Shown here: positions 22,016-59,340 of the stretch, one piece after another
Numbering within the stretch: position 1 is the stretch's first letter
How the letters are laid out: every line of letters starts with the position of its first letter
Source: Candidatus Aadella gelida
Lineage (GTDB): Bacteria > Omnitrophota > Gorgyraeia > Tantalellales > Tantalellaceae
Length of the DNA: 64,000 bases
NCBI GenBank assembly: GCA_030765205.1
Contig: JAVCDB010000106.1
Location: 906 to 64,905, forward strand
Direction: 5' to 3'
The notes under the pieces: generated by a model
The model's database searches: none
Seen by the model: only the letters and a program-made list of their open reading frames with translations
Told to the model about the DNA's origin: nothing
Program-made: the position numbers and the translations under genes

Positions 22016-22301
22016 TTTTGATTCGTGATTCGTAAGTCGTGACTCGTGAACAGTAAACGGTGAATAGTTATCTGTTGACCATAGACTATTGACAATTGAC
22101 TATTGACCTTTCAATTTTCACAGCAGTCGATCTCTACCTTTTAGACTGTTCCCCGCATCAGTCCAACCTAACATTTAAACCTTTAAAACTTTTTACCCTT
22201 TTAAACTCATCATCACATCAGTCACTCTAGACTACCCTCTACCTTCTAGCTTCTACCAACTGCCCTCTATCCCCTAAAACCTATAACCTAACACCTACTT
22301 C
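22016..22301. repeat. Heptad MITE-like element, copy in orientation A. It has a tcgtgaN/cagtRaa heptamer array, a TTGACNA terminal inverted repeat, a conserved core (ccgcatcagtcc) and a cctaNaa heptamer array
   Basis: Read directly. The inverted copy lies at 23336-23577. Confidence 0.75.
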
Positions 22302-23335: not shown

Positions 23336-23577
23336 GGGGCGTTATTAGACTATAACCATTGACCATAGACAGAGAATGACCTATGTAGGATGAGTTTAAA
23401 AAGTTTTAAAGGTTTAAAGGTTAGGTTGGACTGATGCGGGGAACAGTCTAAAAGGTAGGGATCGACTGCTGTGAAGATTGAAAGGTCAATAGTCAATTGT
23501 CAATAGTCTATGGTCAACAGATAACTATTCACCGTTTACTGTTTACTGCTTACTGTTCACGAATCACAAGTCACGAC
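23336..23577. repeat. Heptad MITE-like element, copy in orientation B (inverted relative to 22016-22301)
   Basis: Its core is the reverse complement of the 22081-22200 core; it ends in a cagtaaa/cgtgaat heptamer array. Confidence 0.75.
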
Positions 23578-23580
23578 AAT

Positions 23581-23620
23581 AAAAAAGGGGATGCGAAATA
23601 ATTCGCATCCCCTTTTTTTT
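23581..23620. terminator. Bidirectional rho-independent terminator (ggggatgcgaa-ataa-ttcgcatcccc with A6 and T8 flanks)
   Basis: 11-bp GC-rich stem with T-runs on both sides; immediately after the stop of the 23637..24074 gene. Confidence 0.8.
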
Positions 23621-23636
23621 ATTGTAAATTACAATC

Positions 23637-24074
23637 TTATGCTGCTTTTTCTTCTTGCGCCTTTTTCTGCTCTTCCTGAATCTTTCTTTTGTAACATTTT
23701 TTTGTGCAATAGAACGAGCCATTACGATAGTACCACAGCTTCTTCAGCAGGGCTTTTGCACATGCCGCACATTCCTCCGGCTTCTGAGGCTTTGTAGCTT
23801 TAGGTTGCCGGGCAGGCCCCTTCTTTACTTCTTCTTTGACCTCTTCCTTAGGAGCCTCGGGCTCTTTTACCGCTTCCTCTTTCGCCGGTTCTTTTTTTGC
23901 CGGTTCCTCTTTTGCCGGTTCTTCTTTTGCCGGTTCTTCCTTCGCCGGTTCTTCCTTCGCCGGTTCTTCTTTTGCCGGTTCTTCCTTCGCCGGTTCTTCC
24001 TTCGCCGGTTCTTCCTTTGCTGCTTCTTCAGCGGGCTCTACTTTTTCTTCTTTCTTTTCTTCTTCCTTACCCAT
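23637..24074 (-). CDS. Lys/Glu/Pro/Ala tandem-repeat protein, (AKEEP)x9, with a C-terminal C-x2-C-x18-C-x3-C tail
   Basis: The protein has about 9 perfect pentapeptide repeats encoded by a 15-bp DNA tandem array, followed by CAAC...CTKKC. No family recognised. Confidence 0.5.
   Translation of the reverse strand: MGKEEEKKEEKVEPAEEAAKEEPAKEEPAKEEPAKEEPAKEEPAKEEPAKEEPAKEEPAKKEPAKEEAVKEPEAPKEEVKEEVKKGPARQPKATKPQKPEECAACAKALLKKLWYYRNGSFYCTKKCYKRKIQEEQKKAQEEKAA
23878..24025. repeat. 15-bp tandem repeat array (gccggttcttcYttY x ~9-10) inside the coding region
   Basis: Read directly; it encodes the AKEEP repeats on the minus strand. Confidence 0.85.
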
Positions 24075-24099
24075 ATCTCCTCCGTTCTTCCATGTTTTA

Positions 24100-24444
24100 T
24101 TATTTTTCTTTTGCAGTTATCCACTTCTTATATATGTATTCGAGTATTCTTCCTCTATCCTCGCTTTTGATCTTTTTAAATTTGATACCACCCTGATGAT
24201 CTGCCTCCCCAGGAAGGGTTCCTCCGACCCAAGCTATCTGCCCTTCGAATATTATTGGAATATTATCTCCCGGGATCATCATCTCAAGTTCCAGATCCTC
24301 ACCCTGGTCCAAAGCCTCATCGCTTAACACGCCCACACCATCTCTGCAGAAATTATTCACCTTAAGTTTCTTTAAAGATCCTTTTCTCCGGCATATCGCA
24401 TCTAATAAAATATCAAAACGTATAAACCTTCTTTTCTCGCTCAT
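24100..24444 (-). CDS. PilZ-domain protein (c-di-GMP receptor)
   Basis: RRFIRF (RxxxR) and DGVGV (D/NxSxGG-like) motifs; 114 aa. Confidence 0.65.
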   Translation of the reverse strand: MSEKRRFIRFDILLDAICRRKGSLKKLKVNNFCRDGVGVLSDEALDQGEDLELEMMIPGDNIPIIFEGQIAWVGGTLPGEADHQGGIKFKKIKSEDRGRILEYIYKKWITAKEK

Positions 24445-24545
24445 TCATCCTCCCATAAACAACAACTCAAATCTATCTCACAAAATGTAAAGCCATATAA
24501 AGCGACACTAAAACATAAACTGCTGACCCGATAAAATAGAAAGGG

Positions 24546-24584
24546 AACGACGCGAAATCGTTCCCTTTCTATTTAAACTTCACA
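24546..24584 (-). terminator. Rho-independent terminator after the TIGR04073-like gene (agggaacga-cgcgaaa-tcgttccct + T-run)
   Basis: 9-bp stem followed by a T-rich tract on the minus strand. Confidence 0.55.
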
Positions 24585-24597
24585 TCAATTATATAAA

Positions 24598-24927
24598 TTA
24601 GTCGCTAAATACATATTCCGGCTCTATAACTGGCTGATAATCTTCAGGTATTGGGAACGGGAACGTTACGGTTTCATAAACGCCTGCACCTGTTCTTACT
24701 ATCGTCATACCTATACCTTTTGCTAGCCCCATTGTCAGACCAGAAAGTACATTTTCTTCAACGCTTGTTTCGTAAATATTTTTAGGAAGTTCAACCCATC
24801 CTGTTAAAACATTAGCAATACCTCTGCCTAGTTTCTTTGCAGGATCCTGAGCATAACACTGTGTGGTCATACCTACCATTCCTATGATAACACAACATAC
24901 GAATAACACCTTAAATGTCTTCTTCAT
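24598..24927 (-). CDS. Small secreted protein resembling the exosortase-system-associated TIGR04073 family
   Basis: Signal peptide followed by the motif KKLGRGIANVLTGWVELPKNIY...TFPFP; 109 aa. Family assignment made from memory of that motif. Confidence 0.5.
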   Translation of the reverse strand: MKKTFKVLFVCCVIIGMVGMTTQCYAQDPAKKLGRGIANVLTGWVELPKNIYETSVEENVLSGLTMGLAKGIGMTIVRTGAGVYETVTFPFPIPEDYQPVIEPEYVFSD

Positions 24928-25001
24928 AATTCTGTTTCACCTCCTCCTCTTATATACATTCTCAAAATTCTAATGAAGTATATCATGCGATTTTTACCAT
25001 G

Positions 25002-25370
25002 TCAAGTATCTGACCTTATTATATCATTAACCAATTTCCTTATTCTTCCCTTGTCTTCTTTCTGGAGATCTATAAATTCAATCCCTGTATCGTACAAAAC
25101 GGCACTCAGATCCTTATCTGAGCCCCCTTTTACCACCCATACCACTTTACCTCTACACCTTACTGGTTGCTGCCCTTCCCCTATGAAAACTTCCAGATTA
25201 ACCTTATCAAAGATCTTTATCTCCTCGGTCAGGGAAACACAAATACCGCCCTGCCCTATATTCTCAATGCAGGTATCGATCAAGCTTTCTTTATCGTCCC
25301 TACACACTAATATACGACATTTATAACTAACTCTCGGAAACTTTCTGCCGTTCATTCCGTCCCATATCAT
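25002..25370 (-). CDS. PilZ-domain protein (c-di-GMP receptor)
   Basis: RKFPRV (RxxxR) and NIGQGGICV (NxSxGG-like); 122 aa. Confidence 0.65.
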   Translation of the reverse strand: MIWDGMNGRKFPRVSYKCRILVCRDDKESLIDTCIENIGQGGICVSLTEEIKIFDKVNLEVFIGEGQQPVRCRGKVVWVVKGGSDKDLSAVLYDTGIEFIDLQKEDKGRIRKLVNDIIRSDT

Positions 25371-25409
25371 AATAATATACTATACACGAGTAAAAATGTA
25401 AAAACAAGA

Positions 25410-25946
25410 CTATCTGAGCTTTAATTCAAACTCATTCCCCTTTGGGGACATCATAAGCACTTTATCCTGGAATACCTCAAGCACGGTAAACCCATCGACT
25501 ATCTCTCCCCTAGAAACTACTGCATCGTTAATAATAGCTTGAGGATCCTGGGCCGAATACATTATCCCATTCAGCTCAGGCAAGTTTTCCAATATCCCTG
25601 TTCCCTTGGGTCTCTTTATAGAAACAAATTCTTCCATAACAGTTTGCTTTCTAGAACTGCTCTCATCTGCAGAATTTCCTGCCCCGGGAACAGATATAAC
25701 CCGGGAACTCTTTATCGTCTCATCCTTCGAAACTAAACTCTTAGATATAACACCTACGGCAACTACAACACAAATAACAGTTAACGCACCGACTATAACG
25801 CTCTTGGGTATCTTTATCCTGCTGAATATACTGGGACTAGGATTAGCCGGAACGGATGAGGTATAAGTAAAAACAGTATCATCTTTTGTCTGTTTTTTAG
25901 ACCTGTCCTCTTGTGCTTTTTTTAATGCTTTCGCTATTATACTCAT
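25410..25946 (-). CDS. GspB/ExeB-like bitopic membrane protein (partner of the ExeA-like ATPase)
   Basis: Basic N-terminus, one TM, a Ser-rich linker, and a C-terminal beta-rich domain. Directly downstream of the ExeA-like gene. Confidence 0.4.
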   Translation of the reverse strand: MSIIAKALKKAQEDRSKKQTKDDTVFTYTSSVPANPSPSIFSRIKIPKSVIVGALTVICVVVAVGVISKSLVSKDETIKSSRVISVPGAGNSADESSSRKQTVMEEFVSIKRPKGTGILENLPELNGIMYSAQDPQAIINDAVVSRGEIVDGFTVLEVFQDKVLMMSPKGNEFELKLR

Positions 25947-25975
25947 ATGAATTTTTATACGATAAGAAGAATGAA

Positions 25976-26170
25976 CCGTTATCTGTTGACCATTGACTAT
26001 TGACTATTGACCTTTCAATTTTCACAGCAGTCGATCCCTACCCTTTAGACTGTTCTCCGCATCAGTCCAAACTGACCTTTAAACCTTTAAAACTTTTTAA
26101 CCTTTTAAACTGTCCTCACATCTGTCATTCTCTGTCTATAGTCAATGGTCTATTGTCAATAGTCTAATAA
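25976..26170. repeat. Heptad MITE-like element; complete compact copy (orientation A) with both terminal inverted repeats
   Basis: Left terminus gttgaccattgactattgactattgacc; right terminus, as reverse complement, ttattagactattgacaatagaccattgac. Core contains ccgcatcagtcc. Confidence 0.8.
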
Positions 26171-26199
26171 GGTCCTTTTTCTTTCTACCTTCTATTCTC

Positions 26200-27042
26200 C
26201 TATACATCTGCCGTCTGACCCATCTCTGTGTAATTAAACTGTCCCTCGGTCTCCTCTATACTTTTCCTCACTACATCTTCATCTATAACATGCGCTTCTT
26301 GAACAAACCCCAACAGCAATGCCTTGTCGCATATTATGTTCACTACTCTGGGGATACCCCTGGAATATTCATAAAGATCTAAAATAGCCTTATCCGAAAA
26401 ATCGGGACCGTTTTCTGAACCAGCAACGGATAGCCTGTGCTCGACATATCCTCGAAGTTCGGTCTCATCAAGTGCTCTAACATGAAACCTAACTCCTATA
26501 CGCTGACGAAGCTGCAATAAACCCGGAGCATTAAGTTTATCCTTAAGTTCCGGTTGTCCTACCAGGACGATTTGCAGAAGTTTCTCTTTCTCGGTTTCCA
26601 AATTAGACAACATCCGTATTGTTTCCAGAGTTGCTTTACGAAGATTTTGAGCCTCGTCGATTATTAAAACCGCATTGTTCCCTAAAGATAATTGCTGAAG
26701 AAGAAATTCATTAAGCTGCCGTATAAAGGCTCCTTTGCTTTTCCTCTTGACCTCTATCCCAAAATCGTTCAATACAGCCTCAAGTAGCTGTGTTTCAGGA
26801 AGGCTAGGATTAAAGATTAGAGAAGTTTTTGTCCTGGAATCGAACTGATTAAGGAGAGCCCGGCAGAGTGTAGTCTTCCCGGCTCCAACCTCTCCAGTTA
26901 TCTCTACAAACCCTTTTCTCTGTTCTATACCATACGAAAGATGCGCAAGAGCCTCACGATGGGTATGACTGAGATACAAAAAGTTCGGATCACTAGTTAC
27001 ATTGAAAGGGTTTTCCCTTAAACCATAGAAATCAAGATACAT
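26200..27042 (-). CDS. ExeA/GspA-like AAA ATPase (MSHA MshM / PEP-CTERM-locus ATPase type)
   Basis: ExeA-type N-terminus (LDFYGLRENPF), Walker A GEVGAGKT, Walker B LIIDEAQ. Confidence 0.8.
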   Translation of the reverse strand: MYLDFYGLRENPFNVTSDPNFLYLSHTHREALAHLSYGIEQRKGFVEITGEVGAGKTTLCRALLNQFDSRTKTSLIFNPSLPETQLLEAVLNDFGIEVKRKSKGAFIRQLNEFLLQQLSLGNNAVLIIDEAQNLRKATLETIRMLSNLETEKEKLLQIVLVGQPELKDKLNAPGLLQLRQRIGVRFHVRALDETELRGYVEHRLSVAGSENGPDFSDKAILDLYEYSRGIPRVVNIICDKALLLGFVQEAHVIDEDVVRKSIEETEGQFNYTEMGQTADV

Positions 27043-27094: not shown

Positions 27095-27475
27095 GGGATA
27101 TAAGGTTTTAGGTTTTAGGTGCTAGGTTTTAGGGGTTAACATTGACCGATGAGTTGTTAGGGGCTAGGGTTCAGGGGAGAAAAAGTCACCAGGTCACCGG
27201 TGATTGGGGCGTTATTAGACCATTGACAATAGACCATTGACTATAGACAGGGAATGACCGATGTTATAATTGAATAATAGAAAAAAGAGAGAAATGACGG
27301 TAGACTATGGAGTAATATTTTTTGTTAAGAGATCTTTAAAGGTCAATAGTCAATGGTCAATGGTCAATGGTCAACAGATAACTATTCACTATTTACTGTT
27401 CACTTTATACTACACTCTATATTCTAAAACTACAAACTATGAACTACCCACTACTAACTATCATCCTACATATCT
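27095..27475. repeat. Heptad MITE-like element (orientation B), with a ggttttA/ggtgctA heptamer array, terminal inverted repeats and an actaNNa array
   Basis: Segments at 27095-27262 and 27335-27475. The internal segment is the reverse complement of the 27935-28010 interior. Confidence 0.7.
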
Positions 27476-27855: not shown

Positions 27856-27887
27856 CCTTTTGTCGTATAGCGTAACTAGTAATCTGC

Positions 27888-28075
27888 GATCAGTAAACAG
27901 TGAACGGTTATCTGTTGACCACAGACAATTGACTATTGACAATTGACTTTTAAAGATCTCTCAACGAAAAATATTGTCCATAGTCTACTGGCATTTCTCT
28001 CTTTTTTCTACTCTTCAATCCCAACATCGGTCATTCTCTGTCTATAGTCAATGGTCTATTGTCTATAGTCTAACA
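27888..28075. repeat. Heptad MITE-like element (orientation A); forms an inverted pair with 27095-27475 around the thioesterase gene
   Basis: cagtaaa heptamers, TTGAC terminal inverted repeat, ...tctgtctatagtcaatggtctattgtctatagtcta. Confidence 0.75.
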
Positions 28076-31889: not shown

Positions 31890-32564
31890 TTATTTCGATG
31901 TGAGTTTATATATAGCAAATAAGAAAGCCGGGTTTCCCTTATAATCGATTACAGTTGAATACCATCCGTCCTCGTCCTCGGAAAGAACATTGTCTCTGAC
32001 GCCTTCCTCTAACTGATCGGTTATTTCAGGAGAGAACGATATCGTAATATCTACTTCTATTTCATCCCTGGTGTCATAATACTCATATTTCCCTCCAATA
32101 CGAACATCGTCGGAATCCGCCTTGAAATCATAAATCTTGATCTTGTTCTTACTCAAGTAGAAAGAGAAGAATATTTCTTTGTACTTCCTGTTGCAATCAA
32201 ACGGCATGAAGAACAAGTTTTCCAGAGACTTTTCCTGCGAAGCTTCTTCCTTCCCGAATAAGAACGAAACTCCTCTCATCCTGCAATAACCCTCTACCTT
32301 TTCATTCTTTATGATACTTTTTGTTGAGACTCCGTACTCGACACTATCCGCACTCACAGTTAGATCTTTTACCGGGAGAGTAACTTCAATGTTATTAAAA
32401 CGTCCTTTGCCGACGGATTCAATATCAAACCCGGAATAAGATACCTGATAATCAGTAAAACGATTAACAGAGAATTCTATTATATCCCCAAGGAAGATCA
32501 CACCGCAACATACAATAGACAATAAAATAATGAAAATAGCAGCGATTATAACTATTTTTTTCAT
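31890..32564 (-). CDS. Hypothetical membrane-anchored or secreted protein (224 aa)
   Basis: N-terminal hydrophobic segment; no recognised family. Confidence 0.4.
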   Translation of the reverse strand: MKKIVIIAAIFIILLSIVCCGVIFLGDIIEFSVNRFTDYQVSYSGFDIESVGKGRFNNIEVTLPVKDLTVSADSVEYGVSTKSIIKNEKVEGYCRMRGVSFLFGKEEASQEKSLENLFFMPFDCNRKYKEIFFSFYLSKNKIKIYDFKADSDDVRIGGKYEYYDTRDEIEVDITISFSPEITDQLEEGVRDNVLSEDEDGWYSTVIDYKGNPAFLFAIYKLTSK

Positions 32565-34060
32565 CTGACGCCAAGCTCTTTATCCAGCAATTTTCGAACA
32601 TCTTTCCTGTTTATAGCCTCACACAGGGCTTGTACTATTGCAGGATCGAATTGTTTTCCTGCGCTGTTTCTTATTTCTTTTATAGCATTATTGAGAGGAC
32701 GTGCCTTTCTATAAGGTTTTTCAGTTATAAGCACCTCAAACACGCTTATAACCGCAAGCATACGCGCAGCCAACGGAATATCTTTCCCCTTTAGACCTTT
32801 AGGGTACCCCTTACCGTCAAATCTTTCATGATGATATAGAATTATAGGCACAATAGGTTTGAGTGGTTTAAATTTCGAGAGTATTGCCGCTCCTGTCATA
32901 GGATGCTTCTTTATAATATCGTATTCATTCCCTGTAAGTTCCCCTTTCTTCATCAAAACCCGTTCCGGGATCCCTATCTGGCCGGCATCATGTAACATAG
33001 CCGCATACTGCAACATCAGTATCTCCCTTTCGTTCATCTTGAACTTAGGTCCGATAATACTTATCAGTTTTCCGAACGAAGCTTCGGCTCTCTGCGTTCC
33101 ATGGGGCCGGTTCTGCAATAATCTTGCGATACATTTTATACTACTTGTAGTAAGATCCGCTTGCTCTTTATACAGTTGTGCGTTCTTTATAGCGACTGCA
33201 GCTTGTTCCGCTAACGTCTTCATTATCTCCTGATCCGGCAATGTGAATTCCTTGTCTTCAAACTTATCATATAAAGTTATGACCCCGACAACATCTTCAT
33301 CTATCATAGGAACAGCAAGATAATTCTTTGACCGGACGGGCCCTCCTTTTTTAACGGCCCTTCCCGGAGCGTACTTCCCTATCTGGACCTTCTTCAATTT
33401 GGTCTTTTCTTTTCTGAGATCAATAGTTGTTTTAGGAATCAGTGCTTTTCTCTTTTTATCCACGAGTTTTATAGAACATCTGTTAGCCTTTATTACTTGT
33501 AAAGATAGGCGAGCTATACGCGGCAGAAGTTCGTTGAGATCGAGTGCGGATGTCATCAGTCTGTGCAGAGTATGTACCGTAGAAAGCGCCACGGCTCTTG
33601 GGCGGATATTCTCGTTAGCTTCTTCCAAATCAAAGTTTCTTCTGCTGTCTCGGACAAATGCATCCGTAATAGTAGTGAATATTTTCCCCAAGTCTTTAGT
33701 TAATTTTTTTTCTAATCCACACATAAACACGAATCCGAATATACTTTTATCCGCTATAAGAGGATAACATGCACCGTAAGAACGCCTGCCACATTTAAAA
33801 TATTTCAGACTTCTTGAATCTCTTGTATCTCTTATTGTTTTGATAAGACCGAAAATCTCTTTGCGTATATTCTTTTTATCCGTTCCTGCTCTTTCCAAGC
33901 ATTTGGATATACCTGTCTCTTTAACTCCCTTATAAGTCACAATAGATGCAGCAGACATTAGGATCCAATCGGGTCCCCCGAGATAAGCGCCTAAAGCTTT
34001 TATTTCTTCTCGAGAACACCACCGATTTTTAATTACATCAAATAATTCGTTATATTCCAT
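32561..34060 (-). CDS. HD-GYP c-di-GMP phosphodiesterase with an N-terminal GAF-like sensor region
   Basis: HDAGQIGIP...HHERFDGKGYPKGL motifs. Confidence 0.85.
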   Translation of the reverse strand: MEYNELFDVIKNRWCSREEIKALGAYLGGPDWILMSAASIVTYKGVKETGISKCLERAGTDKKNIRKEIFGLIKTIRDTRDSRSLKYFKCGRRSYGACYPLIADKSIFGFVFMCGLEKKLTKDLGKIFTTITDAFVRDSRRNFDLEEANENIRPRAVALSTVHTLHRLMTSALDLNELLPRIARLSLQVIKANRCSIKLVDKKRKALIPKTTIDLRKEKTKLKKVQIGKYAPGRAVKKGGPVRSKNYLAVPMIDEDVVGVITLYDKFEDKEFTLPDQEIMKTLAEQAAVAIKNAQLYKEQADLTTSSIKCIARLLQNRPHGTQRAEASFGKLISIIGPKFKMNEREILMLQYAAMLHDAGQIGIPERVLMKKGELTGNEYDIIKKHPMTGAAILSKFKPLKPIVPIILYHHERFDGKGYPKGLKGKDIPLAARMLAVISVFEVLITEKPYRKARPLNNAIKEIRNSAGKQFDPAIVQALCEAINRKDVRKLLDKELGVR

Positions 34061-36856: not shown

Positions 36857-38490
36857 TTTACTATTTCAAATTTACCGAAAAGACGCAGGACCACATTGAG
36901 TTGCTTTTGGTCCCAAACCCAGACATTTTGTTCTTTTGCTAAAAGATATGCGTTCTGTTCTATTCCCTTAAGAGGAACAAATATCTTCCTCATGATCTTG
37001 ATATCCTTGTCGGGGAACTTCATGCTCCAAATATCGTGAATATCCTTATCATCAGAAATATCGTTCTGCTTTACATTACAAACCCAAGCTCTCTTGCCTT
37101 TTTTTCCTATGATCTGAAACACCGTATCAGACAATTTCTTTTTCTCAACACTGTCAAATTTAGGCATTTTTTTCATATTCATATTGATCTGCATTTTTTC
37201 GCCGCTAAAACTTTTGAACAGATCATAGATTATATCAGCTGCTTTTTTCTGACTAAAAACACAATATCTTCGGTAGTCATCTGATACTTCCTTCTTAAAC
37301 TCCAGATACTTGATCCCCATATCATCTATCACAGATCGACTCTTCAGATCATAAACATGTTTCAACCAATACTCAAAAAGTTTATCGGCAACGTAATAAA
37401 ATGTCCCGCTATTAAGGACAAGATCCATATCCTGCAATTTTTGAAGATTAAGCCCGGTATCCTTATCAGTTTTCCCGATATGGGCCTGAATGTCCTTAAT
37501 TGTCTGTTTCCCATGTGAGAGCGCCACAAGAATAGGGAGGAACTTCTTCCGGTTTTTTTTCTCAAGAAAAAAGTTAACGTTATTCATGAAATACTGATTA
37601 AGTACTCCGTTGGATTCATATAAAATGTAGGCTAAAGAATCTAAAAGATATTCCTCGTCGTTCTTCTCTCTCGTACTTTCTTTTCTTTTTATCTCCGACA
37701 CTTTCGAAGCCAGGTTCTCTAGATAGAAAGGATTGCCTTGAGTTATTTGGATAAGATAGCTCTTTATATCTTCGGCAATATCTACATCCTTGATTTTCTC
37801 GGACACAAAAGAACGAGCTGTCTGATTATCAAAACCGTCGATCTCAAGAACCTCAAAATTCCCAAAAAGAAGCGACAGTTTTTTAGTCAATATATCTTTT
37901 AGTAAGGATTTCTGAGAACTAGAAACTATATACATGGTATTTTTCTGTACCATGATAAATTTTCCAAAAACCTGAAAAGGTCTTCTAAGCTTGAAATTTG
38001 ACAGATTATGAAACTCGTCAAGAATGACCACACAATTCTTACCGGTCTCCTGTTTGAAAACAGAAGTTATTTCCAAAAGAGTCCCGTAAGCTTCCTCATT
38101 CTTCTTCCCGTCAAGACAGGTTGAGACCTTATCCATAGCACTAACGGTTTTGGGTATCATCCCTTTGGCTTTCATTCTGAGTGATTCAAAATCGTTTTCC
38201 GCCTTTTCCCCTTCAGACCGCAGGTAACGATACATCAAAGCTGCCATGAATTGAGTACAGAAAAAACGAAAATCCACCCCGTCCATTTCAATATACAACG
38301 GAATAACATCGGGGTCTTTGATACTTTTAAGAAAATGTCTTAATATGGAGGATTTACCGGCAAGCATAGGACCCGTAAGAGCGAGATTTTGTCTATACCC
38401 GCCTTTAAGGTCTGTAACTCTCTTCTGTAAAGTTCCGACCACTTCTTCCCGGCCGAACAACTTTTTACCGAAAACTGGTTCAATAAACAT
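36853..38490 (-). CDS. AAA+ ATPase of archaeal ATPase (Arch_ATPase) type with a C-terminal DUF234-like region
   Basis: Walker A GPMLAGKSS, Walker B VVILDEFH; 545 aa. Overlaps the esterase gene by 4 bp. Confidence 0.6.
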   Translation of the reverse strand: MFIEPVFGKKLFGREEVVGTLQKRVTDLKGGYRQNLALTGPMLAGKSSILRHFLKSIKDPDVIPLYIEMDGVDFRFFCTQFMAALMYRYLRSEGEKAENDFESLRMKAKGMIPKTVSAMDKVSTCLDGKKNEEAYGTLLEITSVFKQETGKNCVVILDEFHNLSNFKLRRPFQVFGKFIMVQKNTMYIVSSSQKSLLKDILTKKLSLLFGNFEVLEIDGFDNQTARSFVSEKIKDVDIAEDIKSYLIQITQGNPFYLENLASKVSEIKRKESTREKNDEEYLLDSLAYILYESNGVLNQYFMNNVNFFLEKKNRKKFLPILVALSHGKQTIKDIQAHIGKTDKDTGLNLQKLQDMDLVLNSGTFYYVADKLFEYWLKHVYDLKSRSVIDDMGIKYLEFKKEVSDDYRRYCVFSQKKAADIIYDLFKSFSGEKMQINMNMKKMPKFDSVEKKKLSDTVFQIIGKKGKRAWVCNVKQNDISDDKDIHDIWSMKFPDKDIKIMRKIFVPLKGIEQNAYLLAKEQNVWVWDQKQLNVVLRLFGKFEIVK

Positions 38491-38659
38491 AAGAAGGAAA
38501 TCTCAAATAATTATGAATAATAACGAATAAAATACCGCAATAAATAAACGGGTTAGTTATTAAAAACCAAGAACACATCTTATATTATCCCCCCACCCAA
38601 GTCAATATATATATTAAAATAAATGCCACACTTTCAAGCCCAATTTCCCTTGACAAAAT

Positions 38660-39300
38660 AATAGCCCCTTCGTCCGAATTTATTGTCACTACCATTATCG
38701 GAAACCGAGGCAAAGCCAAGGTTTCAAGAACGTCTGGGGCCACCTTTAAACACAAAAAAGGGGACAGTTGCCCTCACAAATTCGCAAACGGTACAAAATA
38801 GGGACATATGCTGAGTAATTGAACCTTTGTCAGAGTTTATTGTCGTTATTATTATCGGAAACCGAGGCAAAGCCAAGGTTTCAGGGTAGTTCCGTGTACA
38901 GCAAGGGGAAACCGAGGGCGAAGCCCAAGGTTTTAAGATAGTTCACGTGTACGGTGAGGGGATACCGTGTTACTCTTCCCTGCTACACTTACAGGTTCCC
39001 ACGAGCTCGCTCCGATGTTTGCGAGGAAAACTTTCTGGAAAGCTCGGTTTTCAGAAAGTTTGACGACCAAACATCAAAAAAAGGCAACTGTAAACAGTTG
39101 CCTTTTTGCCATAATTTTTCGAAGAAAAATTATGGAACGAGTGAGGGGAAACCGAAGCCACAGGCTGAGGTTCCCACGAACTCGCTGATAATGTTTGCGA
39201 GGAGAAATTTTAGAAAAGCTTGCTTTTCTAAAATTTTGACGACCAAACATTAAAAAACCCAAGTGCAAACCACTTGGGTTTTACCAACTTTTCCCTGAAA
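38660..39300. repeat. Array of degenerate direct repeats derived from the 3' half of the adjacent tRNA-Gly. It includes a 60-bp duplication (38668-38727 and 38824-38887) and two tandem ~150-bp paralogous units (38951-39110 and 39137-39282), each ending in a hairpin plus T-run
   Basis: Read directly: cgagtgaggggaaaccgaagccacaggctgag versus the tRNA's cgagtgaggggaatcgaacccccgtagccagc. Terminator hairpins at 39083-39108 and 39257-39282. Confidence 0.65.
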
Positions 39301-39303
39301 AGT

Positions 39304-39377
39304 TGGAGCGAGTGAGGGGAATCGAACCCCCGTAGCCAGCTTGGGAAGCTGATGTACTACCATTGTACTACACTCGC
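39304..39377 (-). tRNA. tRNA-Gly (anticodon CCC), CCA encoded
   Basis: Hand-folded: acceptor GCGAGTG/CACTCGC, D-stem GTAC/GTAC, anticodon stem TCAGC/GCTGG with loop TTCCCAA, T-arm GGGGG-TTCGATT-CCCCT, discriminator U, CCA. Confidence 0.8.
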
Positions 39378-45544: not shown

Positions 45545-45560
45545 ATTTTTTCTCCTGTAG

Positions 45561-45747
45561 TCGTGATTCGTAATTCGTGAACAGTAAACAGTGAACAGTG
45601 ACCTGTTGACTATTGTCTATTGACAATTGACCTTTTTAACCCGTTCTCCGCATCAGTCCGATCTGACTTTTAAACCTTTAAAACTTTTTAACCTTTTAAA
45701 CTGTCCCCATATCGGTCATTCTTTGTCTATTGTCAATAGTCTAATAA
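45561..45747. repeat. Heptad MITE-like element; the cleanest copy (orientation A) showing 7-nt periodicity from end to end
   Basis: tcgtgat tcgtaat tcgtgaa cagtaaa cagtgaa cagtgac ctgttga ctattgt ctattga caattga ... attgtca atagtct aataaca. Confidence 0.8.
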
Positions 45748-59048: not shown

Positions 59049-59340
59049 TGGGGGATGTTATTAGACTATTGACTATAGACCATCACTATAGACAGAGAAT
59101 GACCGATCCTTCTTCGCTGCTTGAAGACTAAAAAGAGGGTACAGCTTCGAAGAGACAAGTGTTTAAGAACAGTTTAAAAGGTTGAAAAGTTTTAAAGGTT
59201 TAAAATTCAGATTGGGCTGATGCAGGAAACGGTCTAAAAGGTAGGGATTGACTGATGTGAACAGTGAAAGGTCAATAGTCAATAGTCAATTGTCAAGGGT
59301 CAACAGATGACCTTTCACTATTCACTTTTACTGATCGTGC
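59049..59340. repeat. Heptad MITE-like element (orientation B), the longest interior variant
   Basis: ttattagactattgactatagac...cagattgggctgatgcaggaaacggtc...ggtcaatagtcaatagtcaattgtcaagggtcaacag. Confidence 0.75.

Follow-up and report, generated by a model that had tools for sequence, protein, structure and literature searches.

A PilZ-adjacent zinc-finger protein family of Omnitrophota and a 15-bp tandem array in its predicted disordered spacer

A 64-kb stretch of DNA from Candidatus Aadella gelida, a member of the Omnitrophota (contig JAVCDB010000106.1), was analyzed and is called the window below. On its minus strand it carries a small, complete gene (23637..24074), the 145-amino acid (aa) product of which consists of a spacer rich in Lys, Glu, Pro, and Ala, predicted to be disordered, and a C-terminal finger resembling the zinc fingers of the FCS type. 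Part of the spacer is encoded by a 15-bp tandem array, and directly upstream of the gene lies one for a stand-alone PilZ protein. A preliminary description of the locus, made from the sequence alone, had singled out the array. The worthwhile result is of a different kind: the finger appears to define an undescribed, phylum-restricted family, and its gene is invariably paired with a PilZ gene. The array itself matters less.

The finger open reading frame (ORF) is a real gene, as follows from its translation signals, its terminator, the presence of the same ORF in independent assemblies, and the existence of conserved relatives. It starts with ATG, and the Shine-Dalgarno sequence GGAGGAG, read from the sequence at 24077..24083 (minus strand), is separated from this codon by 2 nt. 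The identical 145-aa gene had already been called on a 79-kb metagenome contig of the Joint Genome Institute (JGI) that matches the window (Ga0208904_1000089). A bidirectional terminator had been noted immediately behind the gene, and sequence and folding bear this out: a symmetrical GC-rich hairpin between an A-run and a T-run (23581..23618), suited to either direction of transcription, begins 19 nt past the stop codon. In the minus-strand RNA the hairpin has a folding energy of -29.7 kcal/mol (z = -7.3; 0 of 200 shuffled sequences were equally stable) and consists of an 11-bp G+C-rich core stem with a 4-nt loop, after which UUUUUUAUU follows, which is the arrangement of an intrinsic (Rho-independent) terminator. 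Rfam matches at this position (mir-627, L20 leader) stayed far under the gathering score and were dismissed as hairpin noise. Inspection of the protein sequence revealed no signal peptide, and the protein is thus presumably cytoplasmic.

Relatives of the protein were collected in several steps. A search with the full-length protein gave 19 full-length matches, with small proteins from Omnitrophota metagenome-assembled genomes named just "hypothetical protein", with K/E-rich N-termini of differing sequence. What they have in common is a C-terminal block of approximately KGxAKQPKSTKPxKPTECAACxKALxKKLWYYRNGAFYCTKKCYKRK. A profile made from the alignment of this block (A1) retrieved 698 proteins at E <= 0.1 from a database clustered at 90% identity, 0 of which had a precomputed Pfam domain. 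An exhaustive HMMER search of 1.84 billion representatives yielded 355 clusters (50% identity) at E <= 0.001, some of them spurious. The C-terminal 61 aa on their own found no match in a word-indexed protein database, so that a full-length query followed by a profile was needed. Eukaryotic C2H2 arrays that scored against the profile (e.g., P0138) were discarded as spurious, their multiple matches being to the "KPxECxxCGKA" knuckle only, and one 227-aa protein considered as a PilZ fusion (P0202) turned out to be a membrane-protein fragment joined to a finger. Relatives are present in at least 66 species-representative genomes. Of these, 46 are titled Omnitrophota or Omnitrophica, and most of the other 20 are third-party annotation (TPA) bins labelled "uncultured Planctomycetia/Planctomycetales". 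Judged by these matches, the family is essentially restricted to the Omnitrophota and uncharacterized. The preliminary description had recognized no family; this holds for curated families, but a large uncharacterized one exists, and the ORF, for which absence from all relatives had been named as a refutation, is conserved.

The tail of the protein is a conserved four-Cys module, predicted to bind zinc. Its core, C-x2-C-x17-C-x3-C (CAACAKALLKKLWYYRNGSFYCTKKC; 23694..23771, minus strand), is supported by alignment A1, a second alignment (A2), and an AlphaFold2 model built on a family alignment of 124 sequences. It is preceded by a conserved basic, Pro-rich segment (KGPARQPKATKPQKPEE; 23772..23822, minus strand) for which the A1 consensus is xKGxAxQPKxTKPxKPTE. 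The 26-residue Cys motif is free of indels in 61 of 61 complete genome-encoded relatives, neither A1 nor A2 has a substitution at any of the four Cys, and the flanking K, W, Y, Y, R, N, G, F, Y, and T are nearly invariant. In the model, residues 100-145 reach a predicted local distance difference test score (pLDDT) of ~90 and form a beta-hairpin (115-117 and 120-122), after which a charged C-terminal helix, assigned by DSSP to residues 125-144 (23643..23702, minus strand; pLDDT 86-96), starts from the C-x3-C knuckle. A hairpin followed by a helix that starts at the second Cys pair would be the layout of a treble clef. The module is rich in aromatic residues and carries a net charge of +11 over 61 residues in the window protein, with a mean of +9 in the long forms of the family. 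Earlier, a C-x2-C-x18-C-x3-C tail had been reported as a putative zinc ribbon: the four-Cys motif stands, with a spacing of 17 and not 18, and the predicted fold is of the FCS/TRASH/LIM-like treble-clef kind and not that of the classical ribbon with two hairpins.

No curated model of Pfam or NCBIfam matched the finger protein at threshold, and single-sequence searches of the Protein Data Bank (PDB) and Pfam returned zinc-finger matches at noise level only. When 124 members were scanned one by one against Pfam, sub-threshold matches were obtained to LIM (123 members), Zn_ribbon_RRN7 (93), zf-FLZ (85), the VATC treble clef (26), and zf-FCS (8), and a weak match to prokaryotic metallothionein was seen in 51/124. 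The best E-values were 7.8e-5 for zf-FLZ and 0.0048 for zf-FCS, all below the cutoff, and neither the window protein nor any of the 124 members reached the gathering threshold of zf-FCS (PF06467) or zf-FLZ (PF04570). The zf-FCS/TRASH signature is C-x2-C-x(19-22)-C-x3-C with FCS; in the family the spacing is 17 in 61/61 relatives, the second pair reads (F/Y)C(T/S/N)KxC, and FCS is absent. As no curated model is reached and the scan gives sub-threshold neighbors only, the module is probably best described as an FCS/TRASH/LIM-like treble-clef finger that forms a family of its own, and not filed within those families. Matches of the window protein to histone-like HC2, H1, and Rv3852 models were compositional, lay far below threshold, and were set aside. 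In two family members (P0148 and P0161) three of the four Cys have been replaced (ECASTGK...YFANKKAY and ECAATGK...YYMNKKAY), whereas the hairpin sequence WY(Y/F)R(N/D)G is still there, as are the basic residues; the fold may survive without metal in some lineages.

The conserved partner of the finger gene is pilZ. In the window, the 114-aa stand-alone PilZ protein PilZ_b (24100..24444, minus strand; 35.3 bits against a Pfam PilZ cutoff of 22.5) is encoded 25 nt upstream. Adjacency was scored with a hidden Markov model (HMM) made from the neighboring PilZ ORFs at the 63 loci that yielded a finger ORF. PilZ is immediately upstream on the same strand in 50 of them, with a median gap of 19 nt and several 4-nt overlaps, and immediately downstream of, or overlapping, the finger gene in another 11. 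The remaining 2 are cut off by the end of the contig just upstream of the finger gene, which brings adjacency to 61/61 assessable loci; the suggestion in the preliminary description that homologues might cluster with PilZ proteins elsewhere was fully borne out. All 10 sampled neighbors, five for each side, passed the Pfam PilZ gathering score (36-48 bits). The RxxxR and (D/N)-x-S-x-x-G motifs for binding of cyclic di-GMP (c-di-GMP) are conserved in the PilZ partners, with Cys for Ser in the clade of the window, and RxxxR and N-x-(S/C)-x-x-G are invariant among PilZ_b orthologues. The finger gene and the adjacent PilZ gene are probably co-transcribed. Where adjacency outlasts both inversion of the gene order and complete change of the outer neighborhood, gene order gives the classical indication of two genes that are linked in function and, as a rule, also physically.

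In part of the family the pair is embedded in a larger cassette. Upstream of PilZ_b, all on the minus strand, the window encodes a small secreted protein of the exosortase-system-associated family TIGR04073 (24598..24927; 110.5 bits against an NCBIfam cutoff of 50), a second stand-alone PilZ protein, PilZ_a (25002..25370; Pfam PilZ 47.8 bits), a single-pass membrane protein resembling GspB/T2SSB (25410..25946; conserved beside the ATPase gene and assigned from synteny and weak precomputed matches of orthologues to PF16537 T2SSB), and an ExeA/GspA-like AAA_22 ATPase (26200..27042; 1.7e-29). The latter is nearest to the XrtA/PEP-CTERM-associated ATPase TIGR03015, with 320.7 bits just under the cutoff of 324.5. 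The PilZ-TIGR04073-PilZ-finger cassette together with the ATPase pair was found in 5 metagenomic contigs, with homologues down to ~40% identity, and the cassette was also found in about 25 species genomes. The finger proteins of these cassettes are the long forms. In genomes without the cassette the protein is a short form of 50-66 aa, little more than the finger. The genes that follow the finger gene differ among the 5 cassette-bearing contigs, and mraZ, its downstream neighbor in the window, is a lineage-specific one.

Some further observations on c-di-GMP and on gene order can be added here. Neither PilZ protein of the window has the Ser of (D/N)xSxxG: PilZ_b reads NNFCRDG and PilZ_a NIGQGG, whereas the canonical Ser is present in most orthologues of PilZ_b. 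Across the Omnitrophota (L017-L046, corresponding to 24100-27042 of the window) the ATPase pair is either divergent from the PilZ genes or co-directional with them. A 499-aa protein encoded at 32561-34060 scored 128.9 bits with a model for response-regulator-type c-di-GMP phosphodiesterases that has a cutoff of 400, and on the strength of this sub-cutoff match an enzyme of c-di-GMP turnover may be encoded ~8 kb from the PilZ cassette.

The part of the protein in front of the finger is of a very different nature. Residues 1 to ~98 (23781..24074, minus strand) are predicted by AlphaFold2 to be intrinsically disordered: residues 1-90 have a pLDDT of 49-59, and up to residue ~98 the score is about 50-55 and no secondary structure appears. 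Over residues 1-84 the net charge is -14, the fraction of charged residues (FCR) is 0.62, the net charge per residue (NCPR) is -0.17, and kappa is about 0.02, which means that the charges are almost perfectly mixed. Proline occurs at about every 7th residue of this segment and at every 5th within the array. A chain of this composition is expected to be expanded and not to collapse, and the highly charged polyampholyte linker of the preliminary description is hereby confirmed. Among 258 family members, the first Cys is preceded by 5 to 178 residues, with a median of 53 (101 in the window protein), and the pooled composition of this segment is 18% K, 20% E, 18% A, and 13% P. At the extreme N-terminus, M-x-E-E-K-K-E-E is conserved position by position in most of the long and intermediate members; the window protein has MGKEEEKKEEK (24042..24074, minus strand) as its local form, identified by comparison of family N-termini. 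This conservation suggests, at the level of sequence, that the end of the spacer opposite the finger is a short linear motif.

The array occupies 23866..24029 (minus strand) according to Tandem Repeats Finder, with 10.9 copies of the 15-bp unit, 87% matches, 0 indels, and a score of 209. A 45-bp higher-order period scored as well (3.6 copies, score 236). As had been claimed, the array is protein-coding and in frame. The (AKEEP)x9 given for it holds with a correction: when the codons of the array core (23886..24020, minus strand; residues 19-63) are written out, 8 units are exactly AKEEP and the ninth is AKKEP, after which the degenerate units AKEEA, VKEPE, APKEE, and VKEEV follow. The 8 AKEEP units are encoded by 4 DNA variants, differing at third-codon positions only (GCA/GCG, AAG/AAA, GAA/GAG) and arranged as A B B C B B C D, so that the core with its AKKEP unit reads A B B C B B C D E. 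The order of the variants indicates that the 45-bp block B-B-C has itself been duplicated.

L032 and L037 are the genomes closest to the window, as judged from their PilZ_b scores and from mraZ following the finger gene in them as it does in the window, and the synteny PilZ_b-finger-mraZ is common to all three. Of these closest species-level relatives, L037 has no array and L032 has an unrelated one with an 18-bp unit, from which it follows that the AKEEP array is recent and lineage-specific. The preliminary description had taken the synonymous differences between units as a sign of old age as well as of a maintained frame. All-synonymous differences do fit coding constraint; they are few, however, and the state of the closest relatives and the internal 45-bp duplication speak against an old array.

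Arrays of this kind are not peculiar to the window. In-frame tandem DNA arrays are present in 16 of 25 long-form genes, that of the window included, with periods of 12, 15, 18, 21, 30, 36, 45, 48, 84, and 96 bp and with unrelated units. L032, for example, has (EAPKAA) x 8.7 at 99% identity, L027 a 15-aa unit x 5.9, and L039 EEPK x 12.5. That so many long-form genes have in-frame arrays of differing units implies that the sequence of the spacer turns over while its composition is kept. Throughout the family the pattern is, to judge from these comparisons, one of recurrent independent expansions with selection acting on frame and composition only, and repeats were presumably gained by replication slippage or unequal recombination. 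As a young low-complexity expansion within a disordered linker the AKEEP array is ordinary. Its use is as a clear example of a spacer in which sequence turns over by repeated independent in-frame expansions and composition is retained.

The number of AKEEP units differs between assemblies. Three JGI assemblies (L001/L003, L002, and L008) have 8 units with the same ordered variants, whereas four MEGAHIT assemblies from the European Nucleotide Archive (ENA; L004, L005, L007, and L009) have 4 and encode a 125-aa product; 3 further contigs break off within the array or shortly ahead of it. Beyond the array, identity between the contigs is 100%, and no single-nucleotide polymorphisms (SNPs) linked to the 4-copy form were found in its flanks, all apparent mismatches lying inside the array and stemming from ungapped alignment. 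In the repeat graph, leaving out the B-to-B and C-to-B loops gives exactly the 4-unit form, A B C D E. Two exact-pattern scans turned up no further metagenome contigs spanning the array, and a look-up of mraZ gave no new information on copy number. Variation in repeat number, as anticipated in the preliminary description, is thus seen between assemblies (8 vs 4) but is fully confounded with the assembler. Since the difference follows the assembly pipeline without exception, collapse by the assembler is more likely than a true polymorphism. In no assembly was the array reduced to the one or two copies that would have pointed to mis-assembly of the array as such. The copy number of this array should not be trusted from short-read assemblies.

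The explanation that fits these observations best, and that we consider somewhat better than an even bet, is that of a young array in the tether of a PilZ-partnered finger protein. According to this proposal, the 15-bp array is a young in-frame expansion in the disordered spacer of a small cytoplasmic protein, and the finger module would bind the neighboring PilZ protein as its partner or target and pass c-di-GMP occupancy on to an output. The spacer would act as a flexible, expanded (entropic) tether of which the length matters and the sequence does not, so that gain or loss of repeats would alter its reach only and would never switch the gene off. In long-form lineages, the module might act on the envelope machinery made up of the ExeA-like, GspB-like, and TIGR04073 proteins. 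For the functional core of this proposal, a finger that is a putative partner or target of PilZ relaying c-di-GMP, acting on envelope machinery in the long forms and using the spacer as a tether, the chances are about equal either way. More tentatively, and with the balance of probability against it, finger and PilZ could constitute a new two-component c-di-GMP effector module, conserved across the Omnitrophota, in which the repeat spacer sets the reach and which in long-form lineages would be connected to the ATPase, the GspB-like protein, and the TIGR04073 protein and so steer a surface or secretion process.

Three points weigh against binding of PilZ by the finger. A natural PilZ-finger fusion was not found among the matches listed (150 representatives). 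The finger module is very basic (net charge ~+9 to +11) and aromatic-rich, and would be equally suited to binding nucleic acid. Finally, shared regulation, and not binding, could be what keeps the two genes adjacent.

The second of these points leads to the most serious alternative, in which the protein is a nucleic-acid binder, associated with the nucleoid or with RNA or the ribosome, its finger and the Lys/Pro segment before it make the contact to DNA or RNA, the acidic spacer modulates or auto-inhibits it, and PilZ places binding under c-di-GMP control. Nucleic-acid binding is known for FCS fingers in some eukaryotic proteins, and a charge of +11 on the finger module of the window protein opposite one of -14 on its spacer fits such a design. 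The family profile also matched archaeal L24e weakly (E = 0.027), and there are the compositional matches to the histone H1-like HC2 and Rv3852 models. The L24e, HC2, and H1 matches are far below threshold, though, with those to HC2 and H1 being compositional. The acidity of the spacer is not conserved either: the mean net charge of long-form N-termini is -2.4, and the short forms of 50-66 aa almost lack the tail. Neither is there a conserved neighbor gene related to DNA or RNA, mraZ being lineage-specific as a neighbor. We regard this alternative as unlikely, albeit worth keeping in mind.

A metal sensor or metallochaperone, in which the four Cys would take up and release Zn or Cu as has been proposed for TRASH and YHS domains, is much more difficult to reconcile with the data. 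The Cys pattern is similar to the TRASH signature, the best single-domain PDB sequence match is a chain deposited as "TRASH domain of ZMYM5", and the weak metallothionein match in 51/124 members points in the same direction. On the other hand, the conserved neighborhood has no gene for a metal transporter, a P-type ATPase, or a heavy-metal-associated (HMA) protein, the spacing is fixed at x17, and the pairing with PilZ would be left unexplained. The loss of 3/4 Cys with retention of the rest of the motif in at least two members (P0148, P0161) is in keeping with a metal site that serves structure and not metal trafficking. A role in metal handling is therefore improbable.

Just as improbable is a contingency locus, an array kept since its slippage switches or diversifies the product in phase or antigenic variation. 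That the array is nearly perfect, that assemblies differ in the number of AKEEP units, and that several contigs break in it are features one would expect of such a locus. However, the 15-bp (or 45-bp) unit stays in frame and both the 8- and the 4-copy form keep the frame, which excludes a phase-variation switch, as there is no shift of frame or promoter. With no signal peptide and a predicted cytoplasmic location, the protein would not be an exposed antigen. The exact tracking of the copy difference with the assembler, the identical flanks, and the loop-free path of the 4-copy form fit collapse. An artefact, either a spurious ORF on low-complexity DNA, which here has long ORFs on both strands (among them ones of 171 and 163 aa on the plus strand), or a repeat mis-assembled as short-read assemblers are prone to do, has a negligible probability and is excluded by the conservation of the ORF, as the minus-strand frame alone runs into a domain conserved in hundreds of proteins and has a Shine-Dalgarno site, a terminator, and conserved synteny, and as 3 independent JGI assemblies contain the identical 8-unit array with its ordered variants alike.

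As to the surroundings, all substantial ORFs of the window are on the minus strand, and a complete dcw cluster (mraZ, rsmH, ftsI, and mur genes) lies directly downstream of the finger gene. An intergenic repeat of ~150-180 nt is dispersed over the window in at least 7 copies, in both orientations and 80-92% identical (22019-22207, 23393-23573, 25966-26116, 27207-27412, 27871-28073, 45557-45704, and 59166-59340); one copy directly adjoins the finger-gene terminator. The repeat is made up of heptamer runs (GTCAATA, GTTTACT, GTGAACA) and yields spurious ORFs such as "MTIDLSIFTAVDPYLLDCSPHQSNLTFKPLKLF". It has no match in Rfam and looks like an element of the miniature inverted-repeat transposable element (MITE) or repetitive extragenic palindromic (REP) type. 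A stretch of ~800 bp without a convincing ORF (38490-39300) adjoins tRNA-Gly(CCC) (39304-39377, minus strand). It contains two close pairs of direct repeats, one of 68 nt at 38659/38816 and one of 67 nt at 39015/39191, the latter with an internal palindrome, and no Rfam family matched it.

For most proteins of the Omnitrophota, uncultured bacteria that are often ultra-small and may depend on a host, no function has been assigned. In the genomes of the phylum, small PilZ genes stand out. Conserved small pilZ genes have been described beside the giant genes of Omnitrophota (preprint 10.1101/2023.11.21.568195). A search of full-text literature gave no account of a zinc-finger protein associated with PilZ, of TIGR04073, or of the finger family. 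The family could enter the domain databases. If finger and PilZ do form an effector module, c-di-GMP would exert control over a cell-surface or secretion process in the long-form lineages.

Several known fingers invite comparison. The zf-FCS/MYM/TRASH finger (PF06467), for which ZMYM5 (PDB 2das) may serve as the example, has one C-x2-C...C-x3-C site as well, with the second Cys pair at the start of a helix and an aromatic-rich hairpin right before the third Cys; ..GxFYC(T/S)KxC in the present family corresponds to ..FCSxxC there. The 2das chain is the best single-domain PDB sequence match (E = 1.2e-3) and also a Foldseek match. In TRASH domains the Cys pairs are 19-22 residues apart, compared with 17 here. 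YCT takes the place of FCS, 8/124 members touch zf-FCS (E >= 0.005), none at the gathering score, and the present family is Omnitrophota-restricted and always PilZ-paired. The plant FLZ finger (DUF581, PF04570), which is plant-specific, is likewise a small C2-C2 finger of the FCS type followed by a helix, and it is matched below threshold by 85/124 members (best 7.8e-5). The window protein scores 13.2-15.8 bits against its cutoff of 23.4, however, and common descent beyond the treble-clef superfamily is unsupported. The FCS-like (FLZ) finger has been described as a protein-protein interaction module (PMC4047054).

The second finger of LIM is the most consistent weak Pfam match (123/124) and an example of a treble clef used for protein binding; the best local structural superposition is with TES LIM3 (root-mean-square deviation 0.9 A over 30 residues). 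A LIM domain consists of two tandem fingers with 8 ligands, whereas here there is one finger with four Cys, and the match is limited to profile positions 29-56 of 58. The gyrase-binding bacterial protein YacG and archaeal/eukaryotic L24e are similar in being small proteins (55-65 aa) and in having one C-x2-C...FCSxxC finger of which the four Cys align and which binds a macromolecular partner. They differ in the following respects: hhalign gave a probability of 10.5% to E. coli YacG, with an approximate query sequence, and there was no Pfam YacG match; the profile reached an L24e chain in the PDB with E = 0.027 and 17.6 bits, without a Pfam L24e match; and both proteins have other neighborhoods, neither being PilZ-linked.

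For the spacer, the Glu-Pro/Lys-Pro region of TonB and the C-terminal linker of FtsZ offer parallels, both being Pro-punctuated, charged spacers of variable length that join two functional ends. As in the finger family, composition and length are conserved and sequence is not. The finger spacer differs in being cytoplasmic and unrelated in sequence, and its two ends, MxEEKKEE and the finger, have no known ligands. Stand-alone PilZ proteins need a partner for their output, and established receptors of this type act via a separate target protein, as in MapZ-CheR1 and YcgR-motor. To our knowledge, no known PilZ partner is a zinc-finger protein, and searching full texts for PilZ in combination with "zinc ribbon" or "zinc finger" gave nothing relevant. 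The partners in the present family resemble these receptors in being PilZ-only proteins of ~110-130 aa with intact RxxxR and (D/N)xSxxG motifs, and a finger protein that is always encoded next to them, in at least 66 species-level genomes, is a concrete candidate for the partner of a stand-alone PilZ protein.

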